Source: a virus. Taken from it: a stretch of 39,805 bases of DNA. The stretch lies in UHGV virus genome UHGV-0211726. One strand, written 5' to 3'. The notes under the pieces are model-generated. The model saw only the letters and a program-made list of their open reading frames with translations. It searched no databases and was not told the DNA's origin. Position numbers and translations under genes: made by a program. This document shows positions 5,643-29,536 of this stretch, piece after piece (the first letter of the stretch is position 1; the number at the start of each line of letters is the position of its first letter).

Positions 5643-5692
5643 TTTTTCAGAACACAAAAACCGCCCCTGCGCCAACAGAGACGGTCTACATA

Positions 5693-5739
5693 TCCGAAGA
5701 TATGCGATTAAAATCCACGAATATTGTATCATCTTCGGA
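5693..5739. repeat. perfect 9-bp inverted repeat TCCGAAGAT...ATCTTCGGA with a 29-nt spacer, upstream of int
   Basis: seen in sequence. Confidence 0.35.
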
Positions 5740-5827
5740 AACAGCTTGCAATCCAGAACATTCGTTCATGTGCTGGCTGTTATTTTTGTACCCAAATTTA
5801 AATACAATTACATAGGAGTGTGATACA

Positions 5828-7360: not shown

Positions 7361-7372
7361 CGGTGCTTTCGG
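7343..7372 (+). terminator. hairpin CCGAAAGTGCCG / CGGTGCTTTCGG with the int stop codon in its loop, followed by a T-rich tract
   Basis: 12-bp stem including two G-U pairs; downstream AGTATATTTATT. Confidence 0.4.
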
Positions 7373-7382
7373 AGTATATTTA

Positions 7383-7434
7383 TTAGCTGCATCTTTTACG
7401 AGCGTATTCTTTCGCACATCTAAGATGCAACTAA
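7383..7434. other. candidate attP: imperfect inverted repeat TTAGCTGCATCTT...AAGATGCAACTAA (12/13), with further partial symmetry in the arms, around a ~26-bp core
   Basis: a ~50-bp imperfect dyad immediately after a serine integrase gene is the usual architecture of serine-integrase attP sites. Confidence 0.4.
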
Positions 7435-7488
7435 TACACATTAAATAAGTAGTAACTTTTTGATAAAAATAAGATTGATACAATATTC

Positions 7489-7668
7489 TCAGGACGACAA
7501 CTCCATCCGTCCAACACTCATATACGCAGCCCGTAAAAAGATGTGCATCATTTCGGTTGTCAGGATCATCCCTTCTGGCAACCGGAACTTAAAAGTATTA
7601 CCTGGTATCTCCAAAAACTCTTGGTAAAGCAAAAATGTATCGTAAGATTCGTAGATCTGATATTCCAT
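7489..7668 (-). CDS. hypothetical 59-aa protein with a strong RBS, between the lysin terminator and attP
   Basis: GAGGGGGAACAAGT-ATG; preferred over the overlapping + strand ORF 7543-7758, which lacks an RBS. Confidence 0.35.
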   Translation of the reverse strand: MEYQIYESYDTFLLYQEFLEIPGNTFKFRLPEGMILTTEMMHIFLRAAYMSVGRMELSS

Positions 7669-7699
7669 ACTTGTTCCCCCTCTTGTATTAACTACATAT

Positions 7700-7728
7700 A
7701 TTATAGCACAGAGGGGTTTGAATTGAAT
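7700..7728 (-). promoter_or_regulatory. extended -10 promoter TGcTATAAT (revcomp of 7700-7708) for the 59-aa ORF
   Basis: read from the reverse complement; weak -35 ATTCAA 17 bp upstream. Confidence 0.4.
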
Positions 7729-7765
7729 TTATTAAAAATACATTTTGATAGAAAATAATATTATT

Positions 7766-7801
7766 CCCCTCAGAGAGCTGATCTCCGAGGGGATTTTTAT
7801 T
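7766..7801. terminator. bidirectional intrinsic terminator CCCCTCaGAG...CTCcGAGGGG flanked by AT/T runs on both strands
   Basis: GC stem followed by ATTTTTATT on + and AATAATATTATTTT on -. Confidence 0.6.
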
Positions 7802-8537
7802 AAATAGATTTTACGGGTTCACGATATAATGGTTCCATCAGCCTAATATGCCATGGCGCTGGCTTGCTCCAACTGTAACATGGCATATCATGTCCATAGT
7901 TATCCTTATAAATTTGCTGAATGATTTTTAACTCGTCAGGGTGTGCTAAAGCTGTAACCACTCCATCATGCATCCAATAAACACATCCTTTTCCTTTCAC
8001 CGTAAACATACACTGCATAGTCTCTTCTCCTTCCTGATCTGTTGTTGTGCTTTGGTTTCCGTTCATAAGCTCCTTGATACGGTTAATAAAATAGGCTTTT
8101 GTCTGCGCTGCGCCGCCGTGAATCTCCACTGATCTGTGCGGACAAGCGGTTGCAAACACCTCCTGATGCAGCATGATCGTGCTTGCACTTGGTGTAATTC
8201 CATACTGCTTGCACTTCTGTGCTGCCAACTGTAATGCTTTTTCCTCATTCGCTTTAAATACATTCAGATCGCCCATACTCTGGCATACTTCTATTCCCAA
8301 GAAATTAAGATTTCCGTTTAAGTCGCCGCAATGCCAAGCGCAGTTTGAATCATCCTCTGCTTGCAGAATTCCATCACTACAAACATAATAATGCGCAAAT
8401 CCATTCTCCAAGTTCGCTCTCTGCAAGTAGTTTTTATAGTATTCCGATGTTGCGTTCTGGCTGTCTGCCCCGTTGTGGATAAAAATACCGACAGGATTCA
8501 TCCCTCTCCTGCCGGCAATTCCTCTACAGATACTCAT
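7800..8537 (-). CDS. endolysin, N-acetylmuramoyl-L-alanine amidase (Amidase_2/PGRP fold) with C-terminal binding domain
   Basis: GIFIHNGADSQNATSEYYKNY...HYYVCSDGILQAEDD...AWHCGD motifs; last gene of the late operon. Confidence 0.75.
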   Translation of the reverse strand: MSICRGIAGRRGMNPVGIFIHNGADSQNATSEYYKNYLQRANLENGFAHYYVCSDGILQAEDDSNCAWHCGDLNGNLNFLGIEVCQSMGDLNVFKANEEKALQLAAQKCKQYGITPSASTIMLHQEVFATACPHRSVEIHGGAAQTKAYFINRIKELMNGNQSTTTDQEGEETMQCMFTVKGKGCVYWMHDGVVTALAHPDELKIIQQIYKDNYGHDMPCYSWSKPAPWHIRLMEPLYREPVKSI

Positions 8538-8623
8538 TCTTTCTCTTCCTCCTGTTCTTCTGCCTCGAATGCCTTTTCCAGTTCCTCTACGGATACTCTG
8601 CCAAATTCGTTCTGTTCGCTCAT
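8534..8623 (-). CDS. small acidic peptide (29 aa) between holin and lysin
   Basis: strong RBS AGGAGGTGA; ATGA overlap with the lysin start. Confidence 0.25.
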   Translation of the reverse strand: MSEQNEFGRVSVEELEKAFEAEEQEEEKE

Positions 8624-8666
8624 GTTCTCACCTCCTAGTGCGATGTCGCGCAATAAAAGAGGACGA

Positions 8667-9119
8667 TTACTCGCCCTCCTGCTCCTGTGATTTATTTGTT
8701 AAAACATCCAGTGCTTTTTTTAACGCTTCCGGATATTTCACGCCCATAATTCCAACATTTTCCAAAATCGAGATCCCCTCATTTGCTATAAATGCCAGTA
8801 CTACCGCTGTACGGATGTAGTCTACGCCGAGAGTGACATCCAATCGGTATGCAATAAGTACGATCAGTAGGGATACCCCTTTTCTGCACAGACCTTTCCA
8901 TGCAGAGTAGCTGCTTAGCGCACCGTTCTCTGATTTGTTGCTCTTTTTCCAAAAGGCAGCGATCAGCAACCCGAGTACAAAATCTACACCCATAAAAATA
9001 AGTAATGTAGTCAAGTCCTCGGACCATCCTCCGATCAGGTTTACGAAACCTCCTGCAATAGCTCCGAATACCATGCATAAAAACGCTTTTACATTTGCTA
9101 ACTGTTCCATTTTCTTCAT
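8667..9119 (-). CDS. holin (toxin-secretion/phage-lysis holin family)
   Basis: 150 aa with 3-4 TM segments, directly upstream of the endolysin. Confidence 0.7.
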   Translation of the reverse strand: MKKMEQLANVKAFLCMVFGAIAGGFVNLIGGWSEDLTTLLIFMGVDFVLGLLIAAFWKKSNKSENGALSSYSAWKGLCRKGVSLLIVLIAYRLDVTLGVDYIRTAVVLAFIANEGISILENVGIMGVKYPEALKKALDVLTNKSQEQEGE

Positions 9120-9144
9120 ATCCTCACTTTCCTTTCTGGTTTTA

Positions 9145-9172
9145 AGTATAAAAATAAGACCCTCACGGTCTT
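9145..9172 (-). terminator. intrinsic terminator AAGACCgtgagGGTCTT + U-run between the tail fiber and holin
   Basis: on the - strand: GGGCAAGACCGTGAGGGTCTTATTTTTATAC. Confidence 0.55.
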
Positions 9173-9194
9173 GCCCTAATCTCCATGTACCCTC

Positions 9195-10601
9195 CTAAGA
9201 CGATGCAATCCAAGATGTACAAATCGTTCGCTCTGCATAATCTTTCTTTTCCACATCCAGAGAAATCTTGTCTCCTATACGATATCTTCCAGTTCCAATG
9301 ATCGTCCCTGCGACTACTTCCGGGCACGCGCAAAATACGTGATATTTCGGCCGGAATTCTTCCGGGATGGCCACCTCGTCAAAATCATTGAAAGACCCGC
9401 TGTTCGGAAACTGCGCCAGCATCTCAATTTTGCAGTGTACGATCTTGCCGATCTTATACAACCACATCTGCATGCGATTACTGCTGTTTACATTGGAGTA
9501 CGGTCCTCTCACCTGTCCGGAATCGTATTCCTTGATTCCCATCAATTCTTGATCACCCAGTAATAACTTGCCATGAAACCTCGCATCTTGATAGAAATCA
9601 TAACCCACTTCGCTATCGCTTGCTGTTCCGCCGAAAGCAATACTTCTCCCTTTATTTGCAACATCCAACGCCCGGAACTGTGCCGGAACAATCACTTCTT
9701 CTTGTTTGCTTCCGTTTAAATCCGTGATTGTAACGATAACAAAGTACACGCTCCCCGTGGATATTTTCCCATTCCCGATTATTTGGGAAATCTTTCCACT
9801 TGTCGTGTTTGGATATGTTTCGCTTGCTTTCACCGGACTTCCAGAAGCAGTCTCCTGATAATCTATCCTGACACTGGTTGCCTTGTTAGAGTTATTTAAG
9901 GTCTGGTCTACTTGCCAGCTCCCAGTGACTTTAATGTACGTGCCATCACTCTTTGGTGATCCCTTAGAGTCGCATCGCAATGCAGTCAACCCGGTAATTG
10001 TCGGCTTAATGTACGCGATCTGCCAAACTGCATAAAGAGTCACATCTGCATCGGCACCGTATGTTGATCCCGGCATGTATGCTACGTCTCCAGCGGACGA
10101 TGTTGCCCAGCCCATAAATACATAGCCATCTCTTGTGGGACGCACAGAAGATAGTGTTAATACGGATCCGTATATCTTTTTCTGGTTGTCTGGAGCACCG
10201 GTCCCACCATTTGCATTATAAGATACCGTATGCTCCCACGTAATAGCCGGCAGCGCGTAACTTCCATTTGCCGAGATTGTCGCTGGATTTATTCCCGTGT
10301 TGATCGTTGCGGAAAAACCGATGTTCTTTGATTGTCCGCTCGTTGGCATTGTGATCCGGAACGTCTTCGTTCCGCCGATATTCGTCCAGATCCATTGTCC
10401 GCCGCCACTGCCGACCGCGAATGTCGCACTGCCAGAGGTGTTCTGTCCATCACAGCTCATGCTGTACGGTGCACCGCCGTAATTGTATCCGCCCCAGTCA
10501 AATGCGATATCAAATCTGATATCTACATCATACTTATGCGTGAGATTAACATCTCCTACACCACGTACTGCCGTGACGTATATTCTTCCTGTTCCTGCCA
10601 T
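9195..10601 (-). CDS. tail fiber / receptor-binding protein with a Listeria-Bacteroides repeat (Flg_new) domain
   Basis: VSYNANGGTGAPDNQKKIYGSVLTLSSVRPTRDGYVFMGWATSS...TLYAVW matches the Flg_new repeat; lies distal to Tal. Confidence 0.55.
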   Translation of the reverse strand: MAGTGRIYVTAVRGVGDVNLTHKYDVDIRFDIAFDWGGYNYGGAPYSMSCDGQNTSGSATFAVGSGGGQWIWTNIGGTKTFRITMPTSGQSKNIGFSATINTGINPATISANGSYALPAITWEHTVSYNANGGTGAPDNQKKIYGSVLTLSSVRPTRDGYVFMGWATSSAGDVAYMPGSTYGADADVTLYAVWQIAYIKPTITGLTALRCDSKGSPKSDGTYIKVTGSWQVDQTLNNSNKATSVRIDYQETASGSPVKASETYPNTTSGKISQIIGNGKISTGSVYFVIVTITDLNGSKQEEVIVPAQFRALDVANKGRSIAFGGTASDSEVGYDFYQDARFHGKLLLGDQELMGIKEYDSGQVRGPYSNVNSSNRMQMWLYKIGKIVHCKIEMLAQFPNSGSFNDFDEVAIPEEFRPKYHVFCACPEVVAGTIIGTGRYRIGDKISLDVEKKDYAERTICTSWIASS

Positions 10602-10611
10602 CTTCCTCTCC

Positions 10612-12603
10612 TTACTCGATATAGATTATAGATAGGTGTCCATCCCCATTGTCCAGCATAGCATAGTTGCCTACACCAACTCTCTTTGCACTTAGATTGT
10701 CAATTTCTGCCACCGGCATATACGCTTTCTCGTTCCCAAAATATGCCAATCCCTTATCGCCCTGGTAAAATCCCAATCTGGAATTTGTTAATCTGGCTTT
10801 TAGGTCGTTTCCTGTTCCGCCAAGCTCCAGAAACGGTGTTACGCCATCCGACCCCTGCCGTACCCATGTATCAACCACCTCGGTCTTACCATTCACATAC
10901 TCTACTGTATTTTTAAATTCTGCACGAACTTCATTTTTGTATTTTTCGAAGCTAGTGTTGATATTCGTTACGCTAGAGATTGCTGTATTTGCGGATTCCT
11001 GAGCATTTCCCGCAGCATCTTTCGCATCCTCGATGTCTTCTGCGTATGCTTCCACCCATTTTTCGCCATCCCAGTACTTAAACACGTTATTGACTGTATC
11101 GTACCAGAGCTTGGTCTTATCGTCCGGCGGGGTATCCGACTTGATTGCTGCATCCTCTCCGTCTGTTCCATCGGATACATCCATAACCGTAACCTCTTCG
11201 AATCCTCGAAGGATTCCCTCCGTATCCCTTGCTTCAAATTTGTAGACCGCCTTGCTCTCCACATCCAAAGCTCGAACTTTTATGGTCCGACCGGCATAAA
11301 TATGATTTCCATCCTTAAACCATCGAATTGTGAAATTGTCTGTCCGATCTACCCCATTATCTATTACATTGGCAGTCAAGTTGGTAAAGCCTTCATTATT
11401 TTTAAATACAATTCCGTTATCCGTAGAGATACTGCTGGTGTAAATCTTTGTTTTGTTAATCAGATCCTCTACTTTCTGAAGCAAATCTTCAGAGATTTCC
11501 GACTGCAGCTCTTTAAAATTGGTAAAGACTGTCTTGTTTGCTTGCGGATTCGTGAAACTGCGAACCTGCTCCGATACTCTTGCACTCAAGTATAAGGTAG
11601 GAACGTACTCCTCATCCTCAATCTCCACGGTATCTCCGATAGCAGTATCAAAGTATCCCGTTACATCATAAGTCACGACCGGTTCAGATGCTGTTCTCAA
11701 GTCCGACAGCGCCATACTGTACAGTTTGTCTTTGTTATCCGTATCGTAGGATTTTGGCATAAAGATGTATCCATCTTCCTTGTTTATCAGGTTTGATGGA
11801 AATCTGTCCCTTGCCTGCGGCGCCCGGATATCTGGACCTTGTGTATAAAACTCTACTACGCCATTCTCATCCAGCTCCTCTTTCTCAATTCCCTGTATAG
11901 TCAGTCCATCCTTTCCTGTTGGACGGATACCGGTGTACAGATTTTCGATACTGGATTCCTTGCGGATACCGGTAACATTTTTTCCATACCGCAGCTTGAT
12001 ATCTCCCCGGAACTCCCCGACTCCCGCGTTATCGTCTGAGTGTTCCCGATACACGTTCATTACAATTTCTTTCAGCGAATAATCATCATTTAACACAGTC
12101 TGGAACTCAATCTCCGCATCGAATACATTCGCCACGGAAAATAAACGGGACAGTACCGTTGCCTCACCTGTCCATTCGTTTGAAATCCGCTTATCTGACA
12201 CTTCATTGATCCCGATCCGCACGGTACGTTCCGGATCAAAGGCAGTTACATATTCCTCAAAGCTCATTGCGCTTTCAGATTTGTATGCCCCAACATTCTC
12301 GTTGATCAATTCGAAGCTTAAAGACCATGCTGTCGCAGTAACTGTAAATTCATCCTTTTCCACATGTACGATATTCAGATAGTAGTCTTTTCCGTTATAT
12401 ACAAAGGCTACTTTATTCCCTTCTACGATATACGCCGCATCCTCGTGTTTGGAACTTACCGTAAATGCGTATGTATTCGCTGTCCCCTGCAGATATTCAT
12501 GGAGCTCATCGTTCCAATAATGCATAGAGTTTCGATGGGTGTTATCCAAAAATGCAAGCACCCTGTCATGTGGATTCAGTACGGCAATTCTGATTTCATT
12601 CAT
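10612..12603 (-). CDS. tail-associated lysin / endopeptidase-tail-like protein (Tal)
   Basis: 663 aa, follows Dit in the siphovirus tail-tip gene order. Confidence 0.55.
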   Translation of the reverse strand: MNEIRIAVLNPHDRVLAFLDNTHRNSMHYWNDELHEYLQGTANTYAFTVSSKHEDAAYIVEGNKVAFVYNGKDYYLNIVHVEKDEFTVTATAWSLSFELINENVGAYKSESAMSFEEYVTAFDPERTVRIGINEVSDKRISNEWTGEATVLSRLFSVANVFDAEIEFQTVLNDDYSLKEIVMNVYREHSDDNAGVGEFRGDIKLRYGKNVTGIRKESSIENLYTGIRPTGKDGLTIQGIEKEELDENGVVEFYTQGPDIRAPQARDRFPSNLINKEDGYIFMPKSYDTDNKDKLYSMALSDLRTASEPVVTYDVTGYFDTAIGDTVEIEDEEYVPTLYLSARVSEQVRSFTNPQANKTVFTNFKELQSEISEDLLQKVEDLINKTKIYTSSISTDNGIVFKNNEGFTNLTANVIDNGVDRTDNFTIRWFKDGNHIYAGRTIKVRALDVESKAVYKFEARDTEGILRGFEEVTVMDVSDGTDGEDAAIKSDTPPDDKTKLWYDTVNNVFKYWDGEKWVEAYAEDIEDAKDAAGNAQESANTAISSVTNINTSFEKYKNEVRAEFKNTVEYVNGKTEVVDTWVRQGSDGVTPFLELGGTGNDLKARLTNSRLGFYQGDKGLAYFGNEKAYMPVAEIDNLSAKRVGVGNYAMLDNGDGHLSIIYIE

Positions 12604-14135
12604 TATAAATACGCCTCCCTTATTTTGGCTTTAATCGTTGGTGGAGGACTGCTAAATGCCGAGTAGGAGAACTGGATCTCCGTCTCTCCCGGCGGTACCA
12701 GAAAATGCTTACTTCCTCGGATTTCATCTTCCATCCGCTTCATCCCGTTTACATAAACCGCTGTATCATTTCCATCAATATAGACCACATCTCCGGACTT
12801 ATACCGGTTCGGCACATCTCTGTATTTTTCCACGTTATCCTTGCGGAACCAGATACTTTTTAAATAATTGTGCGTAACCAGCTGATTTCCAAGATCTCTA
12901 CTTCCCCACTGCCCGATCCAGACCTGTATCTTCTCACACACCATGTCTTTAATCTCCGGGATAGTAAAGTAATAATACTGACCGTACCAAAAGATCCGTA
13001 GCCTGTCACCCTCTTTTAAAAAATCATTATGACCACCACCCATCTTCAAATTAAATGGGTTTCCCTCATAAGCTGTCGGCTGGAAATCCAGTGTCTTGAT
13101 CTTCTTGTTTTGTGGTGCGAACCAGTCCACATGCGCCGTATTACCAACCGTATCACTCTTGTTAATAGACATAGAGCAGATCACTTCATTTTTCCCTGTA
13201 AGAAACGCAATAGTCTGTGCTCCCGTCTGTCCCATCAATCCAGTCTCGAACCAGTGCTGCGTGTAACAGTAAAAGTTCTTTGCCCCACGTCTGCCCTCGC
13301 TGTCAACCGGGATAGTAAGTGTTCTCATTCCGCCGTTCCAGTACCCGGATGTTGCCTGTCCACCTTTTAATGCCATCACGTTATATCCAGCAACATTCCT
13401 TACTTCAAGCGTTCCCTGTGTGGTATTTTCTGGATTCTGATAAGAGGTGCCGTGATCGTCTTGAAACAGGCTATACCCCTCTGACAGTATCTCTGACGCC
13501 TTATAGTCTTCGCCGTCTGCTTCTTCGATCTTGCCGAGTTGTATTGCACCGTATTTACTGGCAATCCCAATAAATCCATTTTCATGGTTGTGAGTGATAT
13601 CGTAGCTTACCGGAACGGATTCTGTACCACCATTTACAATAGTAAGCGTCTGATATCCGCTTTCCTGATGGGCAGTAAACGATTTTTCCGCTGCAGAATA
13701 TTTCCGTGGATCACAACAATAAAAAGTAAATTCGCTTTTTACGTTCAATCTGCCTGGCTCCACATCTCCTACACTTGATTTCGTCCCGATAAAATATTTA
13801 TCCGGTTCATCTGCAAAAATCAGCTTTGCCTGTTCCTTATTTAAGATTCCAGAGAGTTTGTTGAATTTTTCCTGAAACTCTCTAGGAGATGTGCAAAGCA
13901 ACTGGTATCCAACTGTAATACTTCTGGTTGTATCTCGCTTTCCCGTATACTCGGACCCATCCACAAGATCAATTTCTCTCTCCGAAATTTCCGATCCCAA
14001 AAGCTCACGACCGGTCACATACAGAGTTCTATACCCATCAATTAGGTTTTCGATGTATTCTCCATCAATCTGCAGGGCCTCACTTGGCAGGGAGTTTTCA
14101 CTCCCAACCTCGCCCGTGTCTACAAAATCATACAT
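12603..14135 (-). CDS. distal tail protein (Dit-like, extended)
   Basis: 510 aa, immediately after the tape measure gene. Confidence 0.5.
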   Translation of the reverse strand: MYDFVDTGEVGSENSLPSEALQIDGEYIENLIDGYRTLYVTGRELLGSEISEREIDLVDGSEYTGKRDTTRSITVGYQLLCTSPREFQEKFNKLSGILNKEQAKLIFADEPDKYFIGTKSSVGDVEPGRLNVKSEFTFYCCDPRKYSAAEKSFTAHQESGYQTLTIVNGGTESVPVSYDITHNHENGFIGIASKYGAIQLGKIEEADGEDYKASEILSEGYSLFQDDHGTSYQNPENTTQGTLEVRNVAGYNVMALKGGQATSGYWNGGMRTLTIPVDSEGRRGAKNFYCYTQHWFETGLMGQTGAQTIAFLTGKNEVICSMSINKSDTVGNTAHVDWFAPQNKKIKTLDFQPTAYEGNPFNLKMGGGHNDFLKEGDRLRIFWYGQYYYFTIPEIKDMVCEKIQVWIGQWGSRDLGNQLVTHNYLKSIWFRKDNVEKYRDVPNRYKSGDVVYIDGNDTAVYVNGMKRMEDEIRGSKHFLVPPGETEIQFSYSAFSSPPPTIKAKIREAYL

Positions 14136-16897: not shown

Positions 16898-17212
16898 TCA
16901 CTCTCCTTTCATCATTCTGCCGATTATGTCCAATCTTTCATTTTTTTGCTTTCGGTTCCTCACACAATCTACTTCTTTTTCGTAATCAAAAAACTTTCTG
17001 AATCTCTGATAAACTGGTTTAGTCTTATTCTTTCCGACCTTTTTCTCTGCTTTCACAGCAAAATTTAGGAATGCTTGCAGATGATTTCGATAGTCCTTAT
17101 CTACTTCTCTTAGCTGCACAACCTCCATAAGCAAGGTGTATTCTGGAATTGTCAACCTATCCACTTCTTCAAAGCTCTTAAAGCCAAGATATCGGAAACA
17201 ATTCAACGCCAC
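16898..17212 (-). CDS. tail assembly chaperone, T-frame portion (probably expressed as a G-T fusion by -1 frameshift)
   Basis: -1 frame relative to G stays open for at least 35 codons upstream of its GTG start, overlapping the G gene. Confidence 0.5.
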   Translation of the reverse strand: MALNCFRYLGFKSFEEVDRLTIPEYTLLMEVVQLREVDKDYRNHLQAFLNFAVKAEKKVGKNKTKPVYQRFRKFFDYEKEVDCVRNRKQKNERLDIIGRMMKGE

Positions 17213-17235
17213 CTCTCTGTAGGATTCTTCAAAAT

Positions 17236-17646
17236 CTACATCATCAGCTCTCTCTTCTTCGCTTCTTCCTCTTCCATTCTCTGTTTCTCTTTCTCTACAG
17301 CGTCCACGATCTCGTCCGTAGCTTTTTTCGTAGCATTGGCATTCTTTAAGAAACCCATTACTGTTTCTGTAAGATCATCGATATCTGTGTCCTCATCGTC
17401 GATATACTCATCCAAAAGGCCTCTTGTCACTCTCGGATTCTGCCCTTTATTCGCAACATCAAGAATGTTTACCAGCGCATCCGGATCACCATTCACTAAG
17501 TTCATAAGCGCATATCGGAATCCTACGTCTTTTTTTACTCCCGGCAATCCATCCACAGGCATATTCGTCTGCTTGTTGATCTCTCTTAAAAATCCCATTC
17601 CGAATTTAAACTGGTACACCTGTCCGTTAATTGTTAATTCCATCAT
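17236..17646 (-). CDS. tail assembly chaperone G
   Basis: acidic C-terminus; GGAGGT RBS before ATG-ATG at 17646/17643; lies between major tail and TMP genes. Confidence 0.6.
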   Translation of the reverse strand: MMELTINGQVYQFKFGMGFLREINKQTNMPVDGLPGVKKDVGFRYALMNLVNGDPDALVNILDVANKGQNPRVTRGLLDEYIDDEDTDIDDLTETVMGFLKNANATKKATDEIVDAVEKEKQRMEEEEAKKRELMM

Positions 17647-17661
17647 ATTTTTTACCTCCAT

Positions 17662-17699: not shown

Positions 17700-17770
17700 C
17701 TATTCTTTTCCTACTTTTGCCTTTCCTACTTTACCTCTGCCGATTAAGGCTACATCGTCAGAGGGCATTA
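17700..17770 (-). other. conserved recoding/structured-RNA element, copy 1, after the major tail gene: GGGGG run at the stop, hairpin CCTCTG...CAGAGG, open -1 frame of 24 codons
   Basis: about 80% identical to 20104-20180; see findings. Confidence 0.55.
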
Positions 17771-18295
17771 TTCCCCCTCTTTCACGCTGTCCTTAAACAC
17801 ATAAGCTGCTACTTCCTGCTGCTGTGCAGTTACAGTAACATCCCCTCGTTTTCCAGAGCCGTTAACACCAAAAGTAAGAGACACCTCTACATTTTCATCT
17901 GCCGAGGATATGATCTCAAATTCCGTGAGATATCCCTGGAAATACATGCCCTTAAACTTATTCGGACCAGGTTCTGCCGGATCCTCAAGGTTTGCTTCCC
18001 AGATTTCAAGCAACTCATCCGAATCCATCGCGTCCTCTAACTCGGAGATTAACTTATCTTTCTTCGCAAGGATAGCAGTGGCCGTGATTTCTGTTTCCGC
18101 AGCCCCAGGTGTGCGAATCGTTCCATCCTTCGTTGCTGTAGAGTCTGCATCCTTGCTTTTTGTTCTTCCATTTTCTGTCGTAAACGCAAGATTTTTCGCA
18201 GCCTCTTCTTTGGCTTTTCCTGCAAGTCGGTACAAATAGACAATTTTCTTGCCAGATACCGCCTCTGCAAATAACTGTAAACCTGTCTTAAACAT
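17768..18295 (-). CDS. major tail protein (TP901-1/phi13-like)
   Basis: 175 aa, placed between the tail terminator and chaperones; N-terminal MFKTGLQLFAEA carries the L27-like motif. Confidence 0.7.
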   Translation of the reverse strand: MFKTGLQLFAEAVSGKKIVYLYRLAGKAKEEAAKNLAFTTENGRTKSKDADSTATKDGTIRTPGAAETEITATAILAKKDKLISELEDAMDSDELLEIWEANLEDPAEPGPNKFKGMYFQGYLTEFEIISSADENVEVSLTFGVNGSGKRGDVTVTAQQQEVAAYVFKDSVKEGE

Positions 18296-19718: not shown

Positions 19719-20093
19719 TTACGAATTCGCCATAATCCCCTGTTTTTTCATCTCTGCAAGAATTGCATTGATTTTATTTTTCAGGTCAGTTGCTGTTTCT
19801 GTGGACAAATCTGCAATCAAAGCCATCTGTTTCACACCGCCAAGCGTTGTTTTATTCGCCGCTGGAAGAGTGTAACTTGGTCCCGCAGGTCCCTGTGCGC
19901 CTGGATCTCCCTTGTCTCCTTTCGGTCCTGCTACTCCTGGATCGCCTTTTTCGCCTTTTGCTCCTGCTGGTCCTGCTGGTCCTGCTGGTCCTGCTGGTCC
20001 AATCTGCTCATTCTTCACGCCCTGCTCTAACTTATTCAGTTTCTCTGCTGTAATAACGTCATCATTATTCCATTTAGTTGGTTCATATGCCAT
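19719..20093 (-). CDS. collagen-like (Gly-X-Y repeat) protein, probable head decoration/fibre
   Basis: [41 protein letters not shown], about 14 GXY triplets; lies right after the MCP gene as SPP1 gp12 lies beside gp13. Confidence 0.6.
19961..20005. repeat. tandem 9-bp repeat (cctgctggt)x4-5 encoding GPA triplets
   Basis: seen in sequence; coding, not CRISPR. Confidence 0.8.
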
Positions 20094-20103
20094 AACTCAT
20101 ACC

Positions 20104-20180
20104 TCCTATTTTGCTTTACCTACTTTTGCCTTTCCGACTTTCCCCCTGCCTACCAAGGCGAGGTCTTCAGGGGGTGCTAT
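20104..20180 (-). other. conserved recoding/structured-RNA element, copy 2, after the MCP gene: GGGGG run, hairpin CCCCTG...CAGGGG, open -1 frame of 25 codons
   Basis: stem has compensatory changes relative to copy 1; -1 frame differences cluster at third codon positions. Confidence 0.55.
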
Positions 20181-21103
20181 TCCCCCACCGACACTTTAAC
20201 TACAGCTTTCTTGTTGTCATTCGGAATAAATTCTCCAGCCTTACCAGCTCCCTGCAGAGCTACTCCGTCAAAGTCTTCCGATTCAATCGTTCTCGCTGTG
20301 TTAATTCCAGTAAATGCTTTTGCAACTCCGGCAATATATGCATAGGCGCATTCTTTAGATTGGAATAATTCATCCGGAATCTCCTCTACAAGGAATCCCT
20401 TGAACTTCACAACCTCATTGCCATCAATGTTTACAGTGGAGTTTTTAGCAGCCGTATTCAAAGGATGATCCACGACGGCATTGTACAGATCGGAACAAAC
20501 CTTAATTTTTTTCGTTCCAACTGCTTCGATGTTATTAAAATACTTAGACAGCTCATTAAACAGCTTTAATACATTGTCTGCCGTATAATCTGTGGCTTTC
20601 AAAGACTTTCCGGCAGAATGGGAAATAAAATTTCCGTGCTGTTTGTTAAACTGCTTTGTCTTAGCCCTCGCCTGCAGTTCCAAGCGATCTGCTACCGCAA
20701 CGTCAAAATCATTATTCACGGTGTGTCGGTCAATCCCCTCGTGGTAATTCCATCCCCAAGAGTAATTAACCGGCGTGTTCGCGTAGATAATCTCTTTTCT
20801 CTCCCCGAAACGGCTAGAGTTCCCTGTTCCCGTTCCAAACGCTTTCGTAGCTGTTTTATCGTACCCAGTTCCAACCACAACCGGAATGTCTGATGTTTTT
20901 ACATAAAAGGCTGTTTCGTTTTCTCTGACTCCATCCAGTACCTCAAGTTCGCCGCCGAAAAAATCCGCGAAATAGGACATCTTTTTAAATACTACCTTCA
21001 AAAGACTTTTAAACTCAAGCTGGTAGCTTCTTACCGGCATATCGTTGTTGTCTCCTGCCGCAAATAACTGTAACATCATAAATTCTTTATTCTTCATCTT
21101 CAC
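20177..21103 (-). CDS. major capsid protein
   Basis: 308 aa after the scaffold gene; N-terminal [12 protein letters not shown] motif; start may be the second Met (21097). Confidence 0.75.
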
Positions 21104-21111
21104 ATTCTCCT

Positions 21112-21726
21112 TTATTTATACTTTGCAAGTCTCTTTTCGAATTCAGACATTGGACTTCCTGAGTTCGTCATGGTTTTTGGTGTAGATCCGGTTGCTCTGG
21201 TGATCTCGGCTTTCTTAAGCTGGGATTCCACGATTTTCATCAGAGTGTCAATTCTTGCATTGGTATCTGCTTCATCAACTCCAACAACAAAATCAAGAAC
21301 ATCCTGCGTTGCTTCGATACCTTTCTCCACAAGCACTCCTGCCGCATTTCTGGAAAGCTGATTCCTTACAGATTCTGCCTGCAATCTCTCATTTTCTTTT
21401 TTCAGCTTATCCATCTCATACTGCTGTTTCTGCTCTGCATTCATCTTCGCAACTTTGGCTGCTTCTTCTGCTTTCTGATCAGCATCTTCCTGCCATTTCA
21501 CTTTTGCATTTCCAAGCGCCGTTTCGATTGCTTTATTGACTCGTCTGTCAAATTCTGCTTGGTTCTTCCCATCCTTTAAAAAGTCCTCAAACGTGTTGCC
21601 GGAAGCTCCATTACTTTCCTCATTGCCTTGCGTTCCTTCACCGTTTGCGCCGGATCCATTGCTTTCTGCCCCAGTTCCTTCGTCTTCGGCAAATAACTGT
21701 AATGCCATAAATTCTCTAAATTTCAT
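21112..21726 (-). CDS. scaffolding protein
   Basis: acidic, coiled-coil, 204 aa from ATG 21726 (RBS AAAGGAAAAG); N-terminal MKFREFMALQLFAEDEG. Confidence 0.6.
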   Translation of the reverse strand: MKFREFMALQLFAEDEGTGAESNGSGANGEGTQGNEESNGASGNTFEDFLKDGKNQAEFDRRVNKAIETALGNAKVKWQEDADQKAEEAAKVAKMNAEQKQQYEMDKLKKENERLQAESVRNQLSRNAAGVLVEKGIEATQDVLDFVVGVDEADTNARIDTLMKIVESQLKKAEITRATGSTPKTMTNSGSPMSEFEKRLAKYK

Positions 21727-22071: not shown

Positions 22072-22359
22072 TTACACCCCCATTTTCATTGTTGCAAGAA
22101 TTAACTCCTGCACCGCTTGGTCTGTGACTTCCTGTGCTGCCTGTGTTGCTTTCAGGTCATTCTGCAATTTCCCATAGGCGCTCATTCCGTCATCCACTGC
22201 TTCATATTCTTTGATTACGTTTTCTTCTGTCTCTGTGTATCCAACAAAGACAAGATTGCTGAATCCCTCTGGTTTCTCTTCCTTGAGTGGTTTGTAGCCC
22301 TCCTTTTTGATGGAGCTGATTCTCACAGTTCCGTTTTCCATTATTTTTGCATAGTTCAT
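22072..22359 (-). CDS. hypothetical protein (95 aa)
   Basis: ORF in the operon. Confidence 0.4.
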   Translation of the reverse strand: MNYAKIMENGTVRISSIKKEGYKPLKEEKPEGFSNLVFVGYTETEENVIKEYEAVDDGMSAYGKLQNDLKATQAAQEVTDQAVQELILATMKMGV

Positions 22360-22361
22360 GT

Positions 22362-23918
22362 TTAAATCTCCTTTCGGTATGTTACTTTAATATCGGGGTC
22401 AAGCTCCCCTCCGTCAACCGTGATGACTGTGGTAGGGTAGTAGGCTTTTAATGCTCGGATAGCGTTTTGTTCGGATTGTGGTAGGGGGACGAATTCTTCG
22501 GAATCGTCCTTATACAGAACGTGCAATGGATTATCTGCCAAATACTGTTTATATGCATCCAGTGTAAGTTCCACCTCTTCTGGGAGAGTTATACATAGGA
22601 TCCCTAAATTATTTATAGAAATACCTGTATCTTTTTTGTATCCTACACTGGAATAGTCATATCCTAACAATTCAGAGCAGAACGGTACGGCTATTGGGAA
22701 AGTAATGTCTGTCCTATAAAATATTTTATTCGCAGGTTGAACTGCCCACTTTCCAGTTTTTCCGTCAATCGTTTCATTTACAGAATTATACAACCACCCA
22801 ATCTGTCCGCCCTGCTCTACCAGTCTGTCCCATTTTGTAATAGGGCGGTCGGATGTGAGGGTGAGTGTTTGTTCTGTGTATGGCTGATATTGTGCAGCGT
22901 CTTTCCCTTCGCACACAATTATGTCAGTTATCTCAAGCGTATTACCTGTTCTAATTGCATCTCCAACTAAATATATTCCAATATCAATGCATATATCTTT
23001 GTTTGGGGTATAGAAGTTACCCATTTTTAGTAACTCTCCATTGTTTTTTTCCTTAAAAAAAGCGAACATAGGCGTCATATTAGATGTCCCGACTTTTCTC
23101 CCATTTAGAAAATAAGTTTTTCCGGATTTTAAGCATATGCCACCACCTGATACTATCGCATATGCACGTTTCGAAGTAACTGTTTCAATTGCTGTAATTT
23201 TTACGATATTATTCTCACGTTTTGCAGTACAAAGGTTCCCACCACTTACTTCCGCTTTTTCGATATCAAACAGATTCTTCCCAGTAACTTTCACACTAAC
23301 TTCATACTTCCTTGTTTCCTCATTCCACTTCCCAGAGTTTTTGATTTCCTGCGGATATTCTGGGCTTGGAGATGGCTTGCCTCCTGTGTAGGGTTCGTAA
23401 GGAGTTGCAGAATTACCGTTTTGTAACTGCGGATAAATTACTGTATTTACTGTCAGCCCCTTTTCTACGGACAAATAAGTGTTTTTATTTAATCCGTGAT
23501 ACTCTATTTTTACATTATCTTTTCCACCGGAAAGAACCTTTCCGTTCCCTGTGCTATTATTAAAAATACTTTCCGCTCCGAAGTCTATTTTTGCTATATT
23601 AAAGATTACATATTCGGTAGCCGTTCCAGTAACTTTTATCCCTCCATCCTCTTGCACTGCAAAAGTTACACCATTTTTTGTCATGTCTCCGGTGACATAC
23701 GGAAATGGTAATAACTGCGCTCCTGTAGTCTGCACCTGCTCCGTCTTCCCACCAAGCTCCAACCTTTCAAGCGGAGCATCCAAGCTGTTCGGAAGTACCA
23801 ACATCCCTGCCCCCTCTAGCTCTACCCTGTCATAATTCGGTGGCTGCGGAGCGGAGACTCCTAGAGGGCAGATCATATCCACTCCTATGATTCCTGTTCC
23901 GTCTACCATTTTAAGCAT
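22362..23918 (-). CDS. large hypothetical structural-type protein (518 aa) inserted in the head module
   Basis: beta-rich, G/T/N-rich, no catalytic motifs recognised; its position between MuF/Prp and scaffold is unusual. Confidence 0.45.
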   Translation of the reverse strand: MLKMVDGTGIIGVDMICPLGVSAPQPPNYDRVELEGAGMLVLPNSLDAPLERLELGGKTEQVQTTGAQLLPFPYVTGDMTKNGVTFAVQEDGGIKVTGTATEYVIFNIAKIDFGAESIFNNSTGNGKVLSGGKDNVKIEYHGLNKNTYLSVEKGLTVNTVIYPQLQNGNSATPYEPYTGGKPSPSPEYPQEIKNSGKWNEETRKYEVSVKVTGKNLFDIEKAEVSGGNLCTAKRENNIVKITAIETVTSKRAYAIVSGGGICLKSGKTYFLNGRKVGTSNMTPMFAFFKEKNNGELLKMGNFYTPNKDICIDIGIYLVGDAIRTGNTLEITDIIVCEGKDAAQYQPYTEQTLTLTSDRPITKWDRLVEQGGQIGWLYNSVNETIDGKTGKWAVQPANKIFYRTDITFPIAVPFCSELLGYDYSSVGYKKDTGISINNLGILCITLPEEVELTLDAYKQYLADNPLHVLYKDDSEEFVPLPQSEQNAIRALKAYYPTTVITVDGGELDPDIKVTYRKEI

Positions 23919-24190
23919 TGTACTTCTACTCCTTTTTCGCTTGTTGCTGCGGGGATGATCTGGACTAGGTTACTTCCCGCGTAGTAATTTTTGTTCCGTA
24001 TCACAGTTTGCGCAGTCTGCGCCGGAATCAATGCACTTTCTTCCTTTGTCGCGCTTTCTTTCAGTGCAACATACACATCCCCATCTGTAAAATTCTTCAC
24101 AAGATATTCTTTCCCCTCATGCGCAAATTCCAGAATCAGTGCCTGCTCACTGGTTGTTGCTGCTCTGATGAAAGTCTCTGTTTTACTCAT
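23903..24190 (-). CDS. hypothetical protein (95 aa)
   Basis: ORF in the operon. Confidence 0.4.
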   Translation of the reverse strand: MSKTETFIRAATTSEQALILEFAHEGKEYLVKNFTDGDVYVALKESATKEESALIPAQTAQTVIRNKNYYAGSNLVQIIPAATSEKGVEVQCLKW

Positions 24191-24194
24191 ATTT

Positions 24195-24482
24195 TCACCT
24201 CACTTTCACATGTTCCGGAAATTCTTCCGCAATCAAACAGATGCCAATGAAAAAGGAATCCACCAGAGTTTTTGATTTCTCTGACAGATTCCTGTATTCT
24301 ATCTCAGCCTTTCCGGGAGAGATTCTGCATTCTATTTTATCATCTGTTAAATTTTCAATTGACTGGATCAGCGTCTGTGTAAGCGCTGTCACAGCTGCAC
24401 ACACAATATCTTTTCCCGGCTCCGCATACCCGGCGTGTCCAGAGATTTCAATTCGCTCTGGACGGATTCTCACCTCAATCAA
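24195..24482 (-). CDS. prp: Prp-like cysteine protease (DUF464 / ribosomal-protein-L27-processing protease family)
   Basis: ISGHAGYAEPGKDIVCAAVTAL aligns with the Prp catalytic His/Cys region (S. aureus DGHADHGEYGHDIVCAGASAV); about 95 aa, as in Prp. Confidence 0.65.
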   Translation of the reverse strand: MIEVRIRPERIEISGHAGYAEPGKDIVCAAVTALTQTLIQSIENLTDDKIECRISPGKAEIEYRNLSEKSKTLVDSFFIGICLIAEEFPEHVKVR

Positions 24483-24539
24483 ATCGCATCACCTCCAAAA
24501 TGAGTACAAAAATACCACCAGCCCGCTCAACCGATGGTA

Positions 24540-24779
24540 TTACATTGCATCAATTTCTACTTCTTTTACTAGATCGTTTAATGATTTTCCGCTATAAAAT
24601 TTATCATTCATAACCTCATCTACATTATCATACTCTTTCGTATCATCACCATGCCACGCTTGATACGTTGGGATGTAATCCCTGACTTCAACTGTCACTC
24701 CCGATGCCAATCCTTTGTAAAAGAAAGAAATATCATTGCAACACTCAGATAAAATTTGTCTTAATTCATCTTTATTCAT
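24540..24779 (-). CDS. hypothetical protein (79 aa)
   Basis: ORF in the operon. Confidence 0.4.
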   Translation of the reverse strand: MNKDELRQILSECCNDISFFYKGLASGVTVEVRDYIPTYQAWHGDDTKEYDNVDEVMNDKFYSGKSLNDLVKEVEIDAM

Positions 24780-26056
24780 AATATATCGCCATTCTCCTTT
24801 CTTTCCTCTTCGCTTAATTCGCGAGTTGTCTTATCCTTCAGTCTGCCGTCTTCTCCCCATGTATAGTCCTGCGCGTGTTCCCCATGATTTCCATAAGGAT
24901 GCTGCTTAGGATTCCCGTGTGCGGTTGTATGGATATCTTTAAATTTTAATTTCGACTCTCCGTAAAAAGCTCTTACATCTACTTTCCCGTCTTTTCCGAT
25001 ATGGTCTATTACCGCTCCTGCCTCTGCCATTTTAGGCGTTCCAGAATGTCCGCTGACTGTTTTATCTGCTTTTATTATATCAAACACAGATTTCTTTTCA
25101 ACCCTGTTCTTCCAAGTTTCAAAATCCATCCCGTGCTCAGAATACCCGTCCAGCCATTCATCATATTCTTTATCATCCATATATGCTGCTGTACTGCACC
25201 GGCAACGTGGATGCATTGGATGCGCATTTTCTCCTGGCATCATTTTTGATACCTTAAAATGCTTTCCATCTAAAGCCCGGCAGATCGGGCAGGCTGTCGG
25301 CTCCGCGATAAACTCATACTCATCAAATCCGTTGCGGATATAGGACTGCTTCTGCGCTTCTGCTTGCACCCTAGACAATTCTGTTGCCATCAGTCGCTCT
25401 GCATTTTCCCGGCTTACTCCAAACAGTTTGGTAAGGTGTCTTGCCAGTGTTCTCGGATTCTTACCCTGTATCAAACCAGTCTGTAATAGCTTCGACAATT
25501 CAGTTTTCAGCATATCCTGGTACATCCAAATACGATCCGAATATTTTGCATTATGGAATGAAGCATTTACGATCGAATGTGCCATCTTCGCATTGTTCTG
25601 GATGGATTTTCCAAGGATTCCCGCCTGCCGTTCAAATTCTTCCAGCGTTTTCTCCGTCAGGATCTGGTCAAAATACTTCTGAAGCTCATCAAATCCACCG
25701 ACAAGATGCATTCCGATATTAGCTTTCAGCATTTCAAGCCTGTTGATCTTCATAGCTGCATTGTATAGCCGCATCTCTTCGTTGGCTTCTTTCGAAAAAT
25801 TCTTATCCTTTACATACCGTTTCGCCTTCCGGCTGTATGCATTAATATCCATTTTAGATACCCGCTTTTTTGCCTCTGCGATTGTGATCCCTTCTGCTTT
25901 TGCATAACGTGTGTAAAATCCATGAATCTCTTTCTGGATTTCATCCATCACGTTCGCATAGATCTTCTCGATCTCTTTCGCGTATTCAGCTTCATCCTTG
26001 ATATTCTTCTTTCGCTGCTCTTCTTCCCTATTCTTCCAATACTCCTGACTGCTCAT
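24776..26056 (-). CDS. minor head morphogenesis protein (Mu F / SPP1 gp7-like)
   Basis: 426 aa immediately after the portal; conserved central region typical of Phage_Mu_F. Confidence 0.6.
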   Translation of the reverse strand: MSSQEYWKNREEEQRKKNIKDEAEYAKEIEKIYANVMDEIQKEIHGFYTRYAKAEGITIAEAKKRVSKMDINAYSRKAKRYVKDKNFSKEANEEMRLYNAAMKINRLEMLKANIGMHLVGGFDELQKYFDQILTEKTLEEFERQAGILGKSIQNNAKMAHSIVNASFHNAKYSDRIWMYQDMLKTELSKLLQTGLIQGKNPRTLARHLTKLFGVSRENAERLMATELSRVQAEAQKQSYIRNGFDEYEFIAEPTACPICRALDGKHFKVSKMMPGENAHPMHPRCRCSTAAYMDDKEYDEWLDGYSEHGMDFETWKNRVEKKSVFDIIKADKTVSGHSGTPKMAEAGAVIDHIGKDGKVDVRAFYGESKLKFKDIHTTAHGNPKQHPYGNHGEHAQDYTWGEDGRLKDKTTRELSEEERKENGDIL

Positions 26057-27386
26057 CTTCCGCGCCTCCGAACATCCGCTTCTCTACGATTGTTTCCTGC
26101 TTCTTTTTGTCCTCTTTCTCCATTCGATCAATCTCCTCCGAAACATCCTTGACGATCGAGAGAACCTGCAGCTGTGTTTCCTTGGACACGATGCTCTCAA
26201 GTGCTTGTGCTGTCTGCGCTTCCTCCAAGAGATTCTTCGGGATATTTCTGCTCGTCGTAAAATCAATATCTTTCCATGCGTCCCGATCTGACACATTTGT
26301 CGCCAAGGAGCAAAACAGCTTATATCGTTTCCTCATGGACTTTTCAACTTTACGGTCAAATGTTAGTGCAAGATTGCTCATGGACTGTAATTTGTATGCG
26401 AGAGAAGTTCCGGAAGCATTTCCGAAAGATTCATCTGAGATATTCGCTACCATGCTCGTCTGGTAAATCAAATTTTCCAACCGGTTCAAAAGATTCTCCT
26501 GCGTTCCATCTGCTGTAGGCTTGCCGAGAAACTGTACGATAATATCTTTTGCATTATCTGTGCCGTACAAGTTTATAATCCGGTTGTCCCTGATCTTGTA
26601 AACACCCTCTTCGTCCAGTTCGGCGCCCAGCACCGCAAGATATGCTTCTGCGAAAGAATCTACATCGTTCGCCTTTTCTCCGATTACTCGATTGTATGTT
26701 TCTACCATGCCGGCGACTTCCTCGTACAGACCGATTCTCTCATCGTTTAACAGGTATTCCACGCAATTGATGCGACCATATGGGTTCGGCATTCCCTCCT
26801 GCATCTTTTCTCCGTCAAATGGGATAATTTCTGTCCTTGTAAGTATCTCGCCATACCTTGTGACATTATCGTCCTTTTTTCCATATCTCACCGCAAATAA
26901 TGCGCGGCTCTTTACGGTATCATCGTAGACAACAAACAGTTCTTTCGGATTGCAGACTACTGTCTTCGTCTTCGCTTCTTCGTCTTGGTAAAAATACTCA
27001 AATGCATGTCCGTAGATGCAGCATTTCTTCGCCAGCTCATATTCCTGGTCAGAAATATCATTATCCCGGTCAAATTCAAGGATCGCATCTTTTATTTTTT
27101 CGTCTGGGTGCGATTTTTTAACCGGAATCCCGTAAGCATATCCCAAAAAGGTCTCTGTGATATACCGTGGGAAATTTACAGCCAGTCGGTTGTCCGGCTT
27201 CCATTTTTCCTTTTCCGGTAAGCGGAAGACATCATGGAATCCTTTGTATAGATTCTCAAGGTATCTGTACCTTGGCATTCGTTCTTCATGCTTTCTAATG
27301 TATTCGTCTATCAATGTCATATTGATTTCTTTATCAGCGGAACATAAAAGCGGTTCCGGCAATCTGTATGGTCTTTTCCCATTCAT
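26028..27386 (-). CDS. portal protein
   Basis: 452 aa between terminase large subunit and MuF-like gene. Confidence 0.7.
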   Translation of the reverse strand: MNGKRPYRLPEPLLCSADKEINMTLIDEYIRKHEERMPRYRYLENLYKGFHDVFRLPEKEKWKPDNRLAVNFPRYITETFLGYAYGIPVKKSHPDEKIKDAILEFDRDNDISDQEYELAKKCCIYGHAFEYFYQDEEAKTKTVVCNPKELFVVYDDTVKSRALFAVRYGKKDDNVTRYGEILTRTEIIPFDGEKMQEGMPNPYGRINCVEYLLNDERIGLYEEVAGMVETYNRVIGEKANDVDSFAEAYLAVLGAELDEEGVYKIRDNRIINLYGTDNAKDIIVQFLGKPTADGTQENLLNRLENLIYQTSMVANISDESFGNASGTSLAYKLQSMSNLALTFDRKVEKSMRKRYKLFCSLATNVSDRDAWKDIDFTTSRNIPKNLLEEAQTAQALESIVSKETQLQVLSIVKDVSEEIDRMEKEDKKKQETIVEKRMFGGAEDEQSGVLEE

Positions 27387-29128: not shown

Positions 29129-29274
29129 AGGACTCACCACCTTTAAAACATAATAAAAGCACCCATCTCTGGATGCTAAGAATTTAGGACTACTGCTAAT
29201 ACGCTTGAATACGACTACAAAAACACAATCAAAATTTATAAGAAAAAAGGAGGAAACTTTGCAGTAGTCCACAA

Positions 29275-29347
29275 CGGGTATAGCAGGACTCGAACCTGCG
29301 ACACGTCGGTTAAAAGCCGATCACTCTCCCAACTGAGCTATACACCC
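29275..29347 (-). tRNA. tRNA-Lys (anticodon UUU)
   Basis: cloverleaf on the - strand: GGGTGTA acceptor, D-arm GCTCAGTTGGGAGAGT, anticodon loop CTTTTAA, T-arm GCAGGTTCGAGTCCTGC; 73 nt. Confidence 0.7.
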
Positions 29348-29536
29348 GTAGGATGCCAGTTGACATCCTTTACCCTATCCGCACTCGGGTACTGACACTA
29401 AATATAGATTGCTGAATCTATTTTTGTTTGTTTTGCAGATCTGCGGATATCTGCGTTTTGGTACCATTGCAATGTAAGTCCGGTGTGCACTCCCAGAACA
29501 GATCTCAGCTGTGCAGCCTGTATACTCACATCACAA

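Follow-up and report, generated by a model that had tools for sequence, protein, structure and literature searches.

A Prp-family protease gene in the head module of a gut siphovirus, with tagged scaffold, capsid and tail-tube proteins as its probable substrates

Analysis of a 39,805-nt stretch of virus DNA (UHGV-0211726; the whole stretch is referred to here as the window) confirmed that a 95-amino-acid (aa) protein encoded in the head module is a member of the Prp family, and we consider it likely that the open reading frame (ORF) encodes an active Prp-type cysteine protease that acts on the phage's own tagged virion proteins. Three structural proteins of the phage begin with a segment containing the motif LQLFA, and among related phages the protease gene and such tagged N-termini are found together.

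A prp gene between the MuF-like and scaffold genes

The window is essentially a complete temperate siphovirus genome. Its lysogeny region carries genes for Bro, Rha, an HTH protein with an ImmA-like peptidase, a PD-Lambda-1-type defence protein and a serine recombinase; the packaging region comprises TerL, TerS and tRNA-Lys, and replication genes, lysis genes (amidase and holin), connectors, a collagen-like head fibre and tail genes (receptor-binding proteins, Dit, tape measure, chaperones and the major tail protein) are also present. The head module consists of the major capsid protein (MCP), the scaffold, a three-gene cassette, Prp, a 79-aa ORF, MuF and the portal. Of the deposited records, the nearest is a phage contig from human faeces with ~90% nucleotide identity, and other partial matches are to Ruminococcus gnavus phages. 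Prophage relatives were found in Lachnospiraceae and other Clostridia, the best genome match (72% identical) lies in a Lachnospiraceae MAG, and exact copies occur in human-gut metagenome scaffolds. The host is probably to be sought among the gut Clostridia and is likely one of the Lachnospiraceae.

Several features were seen elsewhere along the genome. The T5orf172/DUF4041 protein encoded at 4398..5642 (plus strand) matches the PD-Lambda-1 anti-phage defence model with E 2e-155, and because its gene adjoins the serine recombinase in the lysogeny region we read it as a prophage-borne defence gene. A tRNA-Lys(UUU) gene (29274..29348, minus strand) lies directly upstream of the small terminase gene, and Dorea phage DO134P1 has a tRNA-Met in the equivalent place. 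The collagen-like head-fibre gene (G-P-A repeat; 19719..20093, minus strand) and the adjoining 3' end of the capsid gene share 87-94% nucleotide identity with R. gnavus phages that otherwise have unrelated head modules, of the HK97 type and with a conventional prohead protease; the head-fibre module appears to have been exchanged horizontally. Finally, the tail assembly chaperone ORFs (phrog_183 and phrog_441; 16898..17661, minus strand) adjoin in the customary G/GT order; this points to a programmed frameshift ahead of the tape measure gene.

The initial annotation had located the gene for a Prp-like protease with the MuF-like gene on one side (24776..26056) and the scaffold gene on the other (21112..21726), and this position holds. 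Four further ORFs share the interval, the 79-aa ORF upstream of prp and a cassette of 95, 518 and 95 aa downstream of it. The features of this region are:

26028..27386, minus strand: SPP1-type portal protein (Pfam SPP1_portal, E 8e-105)
24776..26056, minus strand: MuF-like minor head protein, upstream of prp (Pfam Phage_Mu_F, phrog_115)
24540..24779, minus strand: 79-aa ORF between the MuF gene and prp (phrog_15041/3711, function-unknown PHROGs)
24511..24541, minus strand: hairpin of 13 bp, then a U-rich tract (terminator-like scan and RNA fold)
24490..24496, minus strand: Shine-Dalgarno GGAGGTG of prp, read from the sequence, 7 nt 5' of the TTG
24195..24482, minus strand: prp, 95-aa ORF with TTG start, predicted Prp-family cysteine protease
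22072..24190, minus strand: three-gene insert (95/518/95 aa) in the interval between prp and the scaffold gene, ORFs without the Prp tag

The 95-aa ORF is present as previously described, and the Prp signature SGHAGYAEPGKDIVCAAVTAL attributed to it is matched verbatim by residues 14-34. Since more than 100 database relatives share its length and start position, and since dN/dS is 0.08-0.30 (pairwise against 36 relatives of 53-95% identity), ORF 24195..24482 is a real gene, and it is under purifying selection; the identical protein has been deposited as 'YsxB-like protein, Siphoviridae sp. ctxBC2'. The hairpin (RNA fold -22.4 kcal/mol, z = -2.84) sits in the 57 nt that separate the 79-aa ORF from prp, just 5' of the prp ribosome-binding site, and may be an attenuator, a terminator or an mRNA-stability element within the late operon. 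In phage DO134P1 (OP172779.1) a Prp homologue with 64% identity is encoded at 7424..7711 (minus strand) and is unannotated in GenBank; it has an apparent CTG start 9 nt after an AAAGGAG Shine-Dalgarno, an arrangement like that of prp in the window, and this start codon would explain why gene callers overlooked it.

Assignment to the Prp family (PF04327 / MEROPS C108), fold included, is confirmed by several comparisons. The Pfam model PF04327 Peptidase_Prp scores 78.7 bits (E 4e-22; gathering score 27), with residues 1-93 of the protein aligned over the full length of the model (positions 1-90 of 90); the PHROGs profile matched is phrog_4478, 'peptidase' (E 7e-31), and the PDB sequence matches are Prp proteins only, namely S. 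mutans SMU.848, an S. pneumoniae homologue and S. aureus Prp (SaPrp). The AF2 model (pLDDT 85.8) has the order beta-beta-alpha-beta-beta-alpha-beta (E-E-H-E-E-H-E), and in a Foldseek search against the PDB the best 14 matches were all Prp chains with TM 0.73-0.89 (for example 2G0J, TMq 0.89; 7KLD, 0.82; 1S12, 0.80), the next matches having E > 5e-3. The protein is probably dimeric.

The catalytic His/Cys dyad proposed earlier is borne out by alignment, in which His16 and Cys28 correspond without gaps to His22 and Cys34 of SaPrp and likewise to the dyads of SmuPrp and SpPrp. Gly23 and Asp25 are in register with Gly29 and Asp31 of SaPrp, loop residues that bind the substrate Gln at P3 (PMC9405229), and the active-site loop Gly15-Asp25 counts 11 residues, as does Gly21-Asp31 of SaPrp, which is the long Firmicute length; the GHA...D-I-V-C loop is thus equally long in the two proteins. 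His16 and Cys28 are invariant among 14 divergent phage and chromosomal homologues, and so are Gly23 and the GHA motif. Such conservation would be unexpected in a non-catalytic binder, and we therefore give hardly any credence to the idea that the phage protein has the Prp fold but no catalytic activity and acts as an assembly chaperone, binding the tags and leaving them uncut, even though a chaperone-like role toward L27 has been proposed for SaPrp (PMC9261936) and cleavage of the tagged proteins is dispensable in phage 80alpha (PMC5744158).

Within the family, the protein does not qualify as a ribosomal-processing Prp equivalog. All 12 NCBIfam models (PRK14553) score 19-44 bits against cutoffs of 122-225, the best being 44.4 bits against a cutoff of 171, and the neighbouring genes encode MuF, portal and scaffold rather than rplU/rpmA (L21/L27). 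At three loci with true chromosomal prp copies, the L21 gene lies upstream and a tagged L27 gene downstream, the L27 N-termini reading MLKLNLQCF'ASKK, MLKLDLQLF'ASKK or MIKFSLQLF'AHKK (the apostrophe marks the cleavage site here and below).

Tagged structural proteins and their co-inheritance with Prp

The LQLFA motif on which the substrate proposal depends is real and non-random. Six-frame translation of the window contains three exact copies against 0.023 expected from shuffled sequence, in which never more than one copy arose per shuffle, and all three lie on the prp strand right after Shine-Dalgarno-preceded ATG starts. Two of them are at the N-termini of the scaffold and the MCP; the third, on the major tail protein (MTP), had been missed in the initial annotation. 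The tagged proteins and their predicted propeptides are:

21112..21726, minus strand: scaffolding protein, 204 aa, ATG at 21726 (Pfam DUF4355, phrog_172)
21691..21726, minus strand: predicted scaffold propeptide of 12 aa, MKFREFMALQLF, followed by AEDEG (motif 21688..21702)
20177..21097, minus strand: major capsid protein, 306 aa, ATG at 21097 (phrog_840, E 2e-116)
21062..21097, minus strand: predicted MCP propeptide of 12 aa, followed by AAGDN (motif 21059..21073)
17768..18295, minus strand: major tail protein, 175 aa (phrog_238, E 2e-51)
18269..18295, minus strand: predicted MTP propeptide of 9 aa, MFKTGLQLF'AEAVS (motif 18266..18280)

The scaffold length of 204 aa is also given by two public gene calls. 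At the sequence level, the late region of prp itself hence supplies three proteins with a ...LQ(F/L)F'A tag as cognate substrate candidates. The tags agree with the published L27 motif, MLxx(D/N)LQ(F/L)F'A (PMC9405229), and with the roles of Phe at P1, Gln at P3 and Leu at P4 in the SaPrp-peptide complex, where the P1 Phe stacks on the catalytic His, the P3 Gln is held by the loop, the P4 Leu is buried and P1' is small (PMC9405229). At the nucleotide level, an identical 14-nt string, TTACAGTTATTTGC, encodes all three tags (18267..18280, 21060..21073 and 21689..21702, minus strand). TTA makes up only ~20% of the Leu codons in the structural genes, and the tag codons dominate in relatives too; the shared codons may reflect an AT-rich 5'-codon bias or an effect at the RNA or DNA level.

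Among relatives, the enzyme and the tag accompany each other whichever of them is taken as the starting point. In six deposited Prp-carrying phages that were fetched, from five host genera (Dorea, Acutalibacter, Brochothrix, Lactococcus (TP712) and Enterococcus phages), scaffold and MCP are tagged in 6/6 and the MTP in 5/6, the tail protein of TP712 beginning untagged at the mature end. Counted over related and therefore phylogenetically non-independent phages, with Prp identities down to ~40%, at least three tagged same-strand N-termini lie downstream of prp in 58/60 Prp-anchored IMG/VR loci (those with at least 7 kb of downstream flank), and conversely Prp is encoded 0.9-3.9 kb upstream of the capsid gene in 60/60 MCP-anchored loci spanning 67-100% capsid identity, 59 of which keep the capsid tag, the remaining locus not being assessable. 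The upstream regions and the opposite strand of the same Prp-anchored loci gave sporadic loose tag matches only, and tagged tail-tube N-termini recur among the relatives. Genes for a relative of Prp are present in at least 449 IMG/VR stretches, and the window protein has matches to 1,722 protein clusters; a scan for distant relatives, taking the best 80 matches, returned mostly close loci already in the set.

Phages that lack tags were also found. RG-TP1 shares its packaging genes and the three-gene cassette with the window, has a different, untagged set of scaffold, capsid and tail genes, and is without Prp. In another locus (IMGVR_UViG_3300034415_000159, 5654..13135) an intact Prp, 94% identical to that of the window, stands beside untagged genes, the order being MuF, the 79-aa ORF, Prp, the cassette and then RG-TP1-type scaffold, capsid and tail genes without LQxF; we read this locus as a recent recombinant, a mosaic in which Prp has apparently been orphaned. 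The R. gnavus phage phiRgPS_6 was considered as a matched control and set aside, as its head is of the HK97 type and comes with a prohead protease of its own, and the head-fibre region is all that it shares with the window.

A further observation ties the sequence of the enzyme to that of the tag. In the Prp of Acutalibacter phage Fontainebleau (22189..22485) the loop has 3 extra residues and Asn in place of the conserved Asp (GHAPRANGEAPGQNIVC), and both this phage and 10/10 IMG/VR relatives with the same loop (70-100% Prp identity) have NLQLF'D, rather than a tag with Ala after the cut, on all of their tagged proteins. Host L27 has Ala at P1', and the SaPrp structure points to tight size limits on that position (PMC9405229), which makes the phage Prp the natural candidate for processing NLQLF'D tags. 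From this covariation we argue that the enzymes matched to the phage tags are the phage Prps; for the phage in the window it constitutes indirect evidence. The covariation is shown for the Asp clade only, because in a clade with Gly at P1' (three loci), examined as a second case, the Prp loop is unchanged. The tags also vary at P2, where BL3 and TP712 have K or R and the Dorea phage has V, and at P1', which is G, S or T in some phages; no tie between these variants and a loop change was found among the compared Prps.

These data bear on whether the phage needs its own enzyme at all. The host Prp might process the tags, as it does in 80alpha (PMC5744158), leaving the phage copy as a redundant dosage booster or a hitch-hiker. 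Lachnospiraceae do possess Prp and a long L27, whose extension ends NLQFF'AHKK in the presumed hosts (PMC9405229 Table 2). The loop of the window Prp, YAEPGKDIVC, is essentially the chromosomal consensus and the window tags are canonical LQLF'A, so that a host Prp could in principle serve them too, and the mosaic locus that retains Prp without tagged substrates is the best single datum in favour of redundancy. However, prp is kept under purifying selection and is co-inherited almost perfectly with the tagged genes down to ~40% Prp identity, Prp is missing where the tags are missing (RG-TP1), and a host Prp is unlikely to accept Asp at the restricted P1' position (PMC9405229), as the Fontainebleau clade would demand; we therefore regard redundancy of the phage copy as unlikely. 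The earlier suggestion that the phage carries its own enzyme for the job that host Prp performs in 80alpha is, by contrast, strongly supported by the two-way co-occurrence and the covariation of loop and P1'.

Proposed processing of virion proteins

We propose that the protease would be made together with the late head genes and would recognise the xLQLF N-terminal tag on the scaffold, capsid and tail-tube precursors, the tag mimicking the N-terminal extension of Firmicute ribosomal protein L27. A cut at F'A, with Phe at P1 and Ala at P1', would remove 12, 12 and 9 residues from scaffold, MCP and MTP, respectively, and leave AEDEG (scaffold), AAGDN (capsid) and AEAVS (tail tube) as the predicted mature N-termini. 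From its sequence we infer that the phage Prp has F'A endopeptidase activity and that cleavage itself takes place; in this phage the cut would presumably be made by the phage enzyme rather than by host Prp, and the timing of cleavage and the division of labour with the host enzyme in this scheme are likewise conjectural. With a prp gene of its own, the phage would be freed from reliance on the quantity and specificity of the host enzyme, on which staphylococcal phage 80alpha depends.

Other proteins of the head module were considered for a part in this process. The MuF protein was rejected as a protease, its match to phrog_595 ('head maturation protease') being a MuF-family match and Phage_Mu_F its sole Pfam domain. 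The 79-aa ORF was dismissed as a partner of Prp, as it adjoins prp in 86 loci and is missing in 117. Nor does the 95/518/95-aa cassette appear to supply extra substrates or a cofactor, since its ORFs are untagged and it is also present in the Prp-less phage RG-TP1; no credible match to the cassette (22072..24190) was found in Pfam, PHROGs, PDB or PADLOC, and the 518-aa ORF has a marginal partial match to the function-unknown phrog_35108 (E 2.5e-4). The cassette is missing from many relatives, in which the scaffold gene directly follows prp, and two architectures are seen, with the MCP gene 0.9 kb or 2.6-3.9 kb downstream of prp. Where the cassette occurs, its middle gene varies from 403 to 518 aa among relatives.

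The initial annotation had further suggested that Prp replaces a conventional prohead protease, and this stands in part. In its favour are the position of the gene, the predicted N-terminal trimming and the search for an alternative, in which Pfam and PHROG comparisons of the portal-to-MCP ORFs and the other scanned window ORFs revealed no prohead protease of the S14, S49, S78, U9 or U35 type. The suggestion does not extend to mechanism, as only 9-12 residues would be removed. In 80alpha, cleavage of the capsid and scaffolding proteins, besides being unnecessary for viability, may precede assembly, and it is the uncleaved scaffold N-terminus that is needed for assembly (PMC5744158). As cleavage is dispensable there, function may reside in the tag and not in its removal.

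The same requirement for the scaffold N-terminus and not for its cleavage (PMC5744158) could be taken to mean that the tags serve otherwise and that the phage Prp is directed at a host protein, pre-L27 or other substrates, so as to reprogram or protect translation. The L27-type specificity predicted for the phage enzyme would fit such a role, and an S. mutans Prp homologue has been reported to cleave cellular enzymes (cited in PMC12341114). However, prp is part of the late head operon, where in many relatives the scaffold gene comes immediately after it, and it varies with the tags on phage proteins, both in their presence and in their sequence, and with no host feature; we thus think it very unlikely that a host protein is the target.

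Returning to the processing of phage proteins, two reasons why a phage might carry its own Prp seem plausible. One is demand, as a burst may need roughly 10^5 cuts by our own estimate. The other is independence from the host-specific specificity of Prp, each L27 tag being highly specific to its own Prp (PMC9405229). A broader possibility, which we put forward tentatively and would not call probable, is that phage Prp and LQxF make up a portable pair of protease and propeptide, co-evolving with its substrates and providing a host-independent, orthogonal assembly checkpoint. Such a pair would mark every major self-polymerising virion protein, that is, scaffold, capsid and tail tube; its specificity could drift from that of host Prp, as in the Fontainebleau loop with Asn and Asp at P1'; and it may have been an evolutionary source or sink of the Firmicute L27/Prp system.

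Relation to known Prp systems and prohead proteases

Parts of this picture are established. Phage homologues have been catalogued as phrog_4478, 'DUF464', 'peptidase', 'YsxB-like' or 'cysteine protease', and the tag and its processing by host Prp are known from 80alpha (Wall et al. 2015). To our knowledge, previous accounts of how Prp is linked to phages have the phage borrowing the enzyme of its host. Wall et al. (2015) may have pointed to DUF464 genes in phages before, and we therefore claim no conceptual novelty. In the searchable full-text literature we found no functional or comparative account of phage-encoded Prp, and in the searchable literature no biochemical evidence on any such protein; a 2025 preprint from the Dokland group deals with the tag alone, in staphylococcal phages. 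The three-substrate design and the covariation of loop and P1' most merit follow-up.

Our findings suggest that many Firmicute siphoviruses carry their own Prp beside two or three tagged substrates: the scaffold, the capsid and, in most cases, the tail tube. Prp itself is being investigated as a target for narrow-spectrum antibiotics. If the proposal is correct, these phages would offer natural enzyme/tag pairs with differing P2 and P1' preferences for specificity studies and for orthogonal tag removal, the tail tube would join the assemblies processed by Prp, and an annotation rule would follow by which a Prp gene together with xLQxF N-termini predicts the mature ends of virion proteins. The occurrence of the enzyme and tag in phages also touches on the reason for the cleavable extension of L27.

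Conventional prohead proteases (HK97 gp4-type S78/U35, ClpP-like S14/S49 and T4 gp21-type U9) resemble the phage Prp in that their genes lie between the portal and capsid genes and that they trim the N-termini of head proteins, whereas their fold and catalytic type are unrelated to those of Prp. Such proteases are packaged within the procapsid, and the delta or scaffold domains that they remove are large. The capsid-processing cysteine protease of phage Cp-1, the only other member of MEROPS clan CR (PMC9405229, PMC9261936), belongs to a different family and removes ~40 residues.

Chromosomal Prp/YsxB (MEROPS C108; S. aureus 4PEO, 7KLD and 7JVS, S. mutans 2G0I and S. pneumoniae 2IDL) shares with the phage protein the Pfam family, the fold, the His/Cys dyad, a GHA...G-x-D-I-V-C loop of equal length and a predicted recognition sequence ...LQ(L/F)F'A. 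The phage copy differs in being encoded in a head module and not in an rplU-prp-rpmA arrangement and in having ~20-34% identity to the solved Prps, and the predicted phage substrates have acidic residues after the cut (AEDEG, AAGDN, AEAVS) where L27 has A[S/H]KK.

Among deposited phages, homologues matching phrog_4478 are found in Enterococcus phiFL3A (gp45, DUF464), Brochothrix BL3 (gp6), Lactococcus TP712 (orf36) and PLgT-1, Acutalibacter phage Fontainebleau ('peptidase') and DO134P1. They agree with the window in family, in position near the portal, MuF and scaffold genes and in the presence of tagged structural proteins, and they differ in being 31-64% identical to the window Prp and in the P2 and P1' residues of their tags, which vary between phages; in phiFL3A, BL3 and TP712, unlike in the window, Prp precedes MuF.

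The nearest functional counterpart is 80alpha, whose capsid and scaffolding proteins carry the same tag and F'A site, are cut by host Prp and are encoded in an SPP1/Sfi11-like head module without a conventional protease, and in phage phi13 the major tail protein also bears the tag (PMC5744158). In 80alpha the enzyme is encoded by the host, whereas in the phage of the window and in hundreds of relatives it is encoded by the phage, close to its probable substrates, and in the window phage all three tagged proteins occur together.
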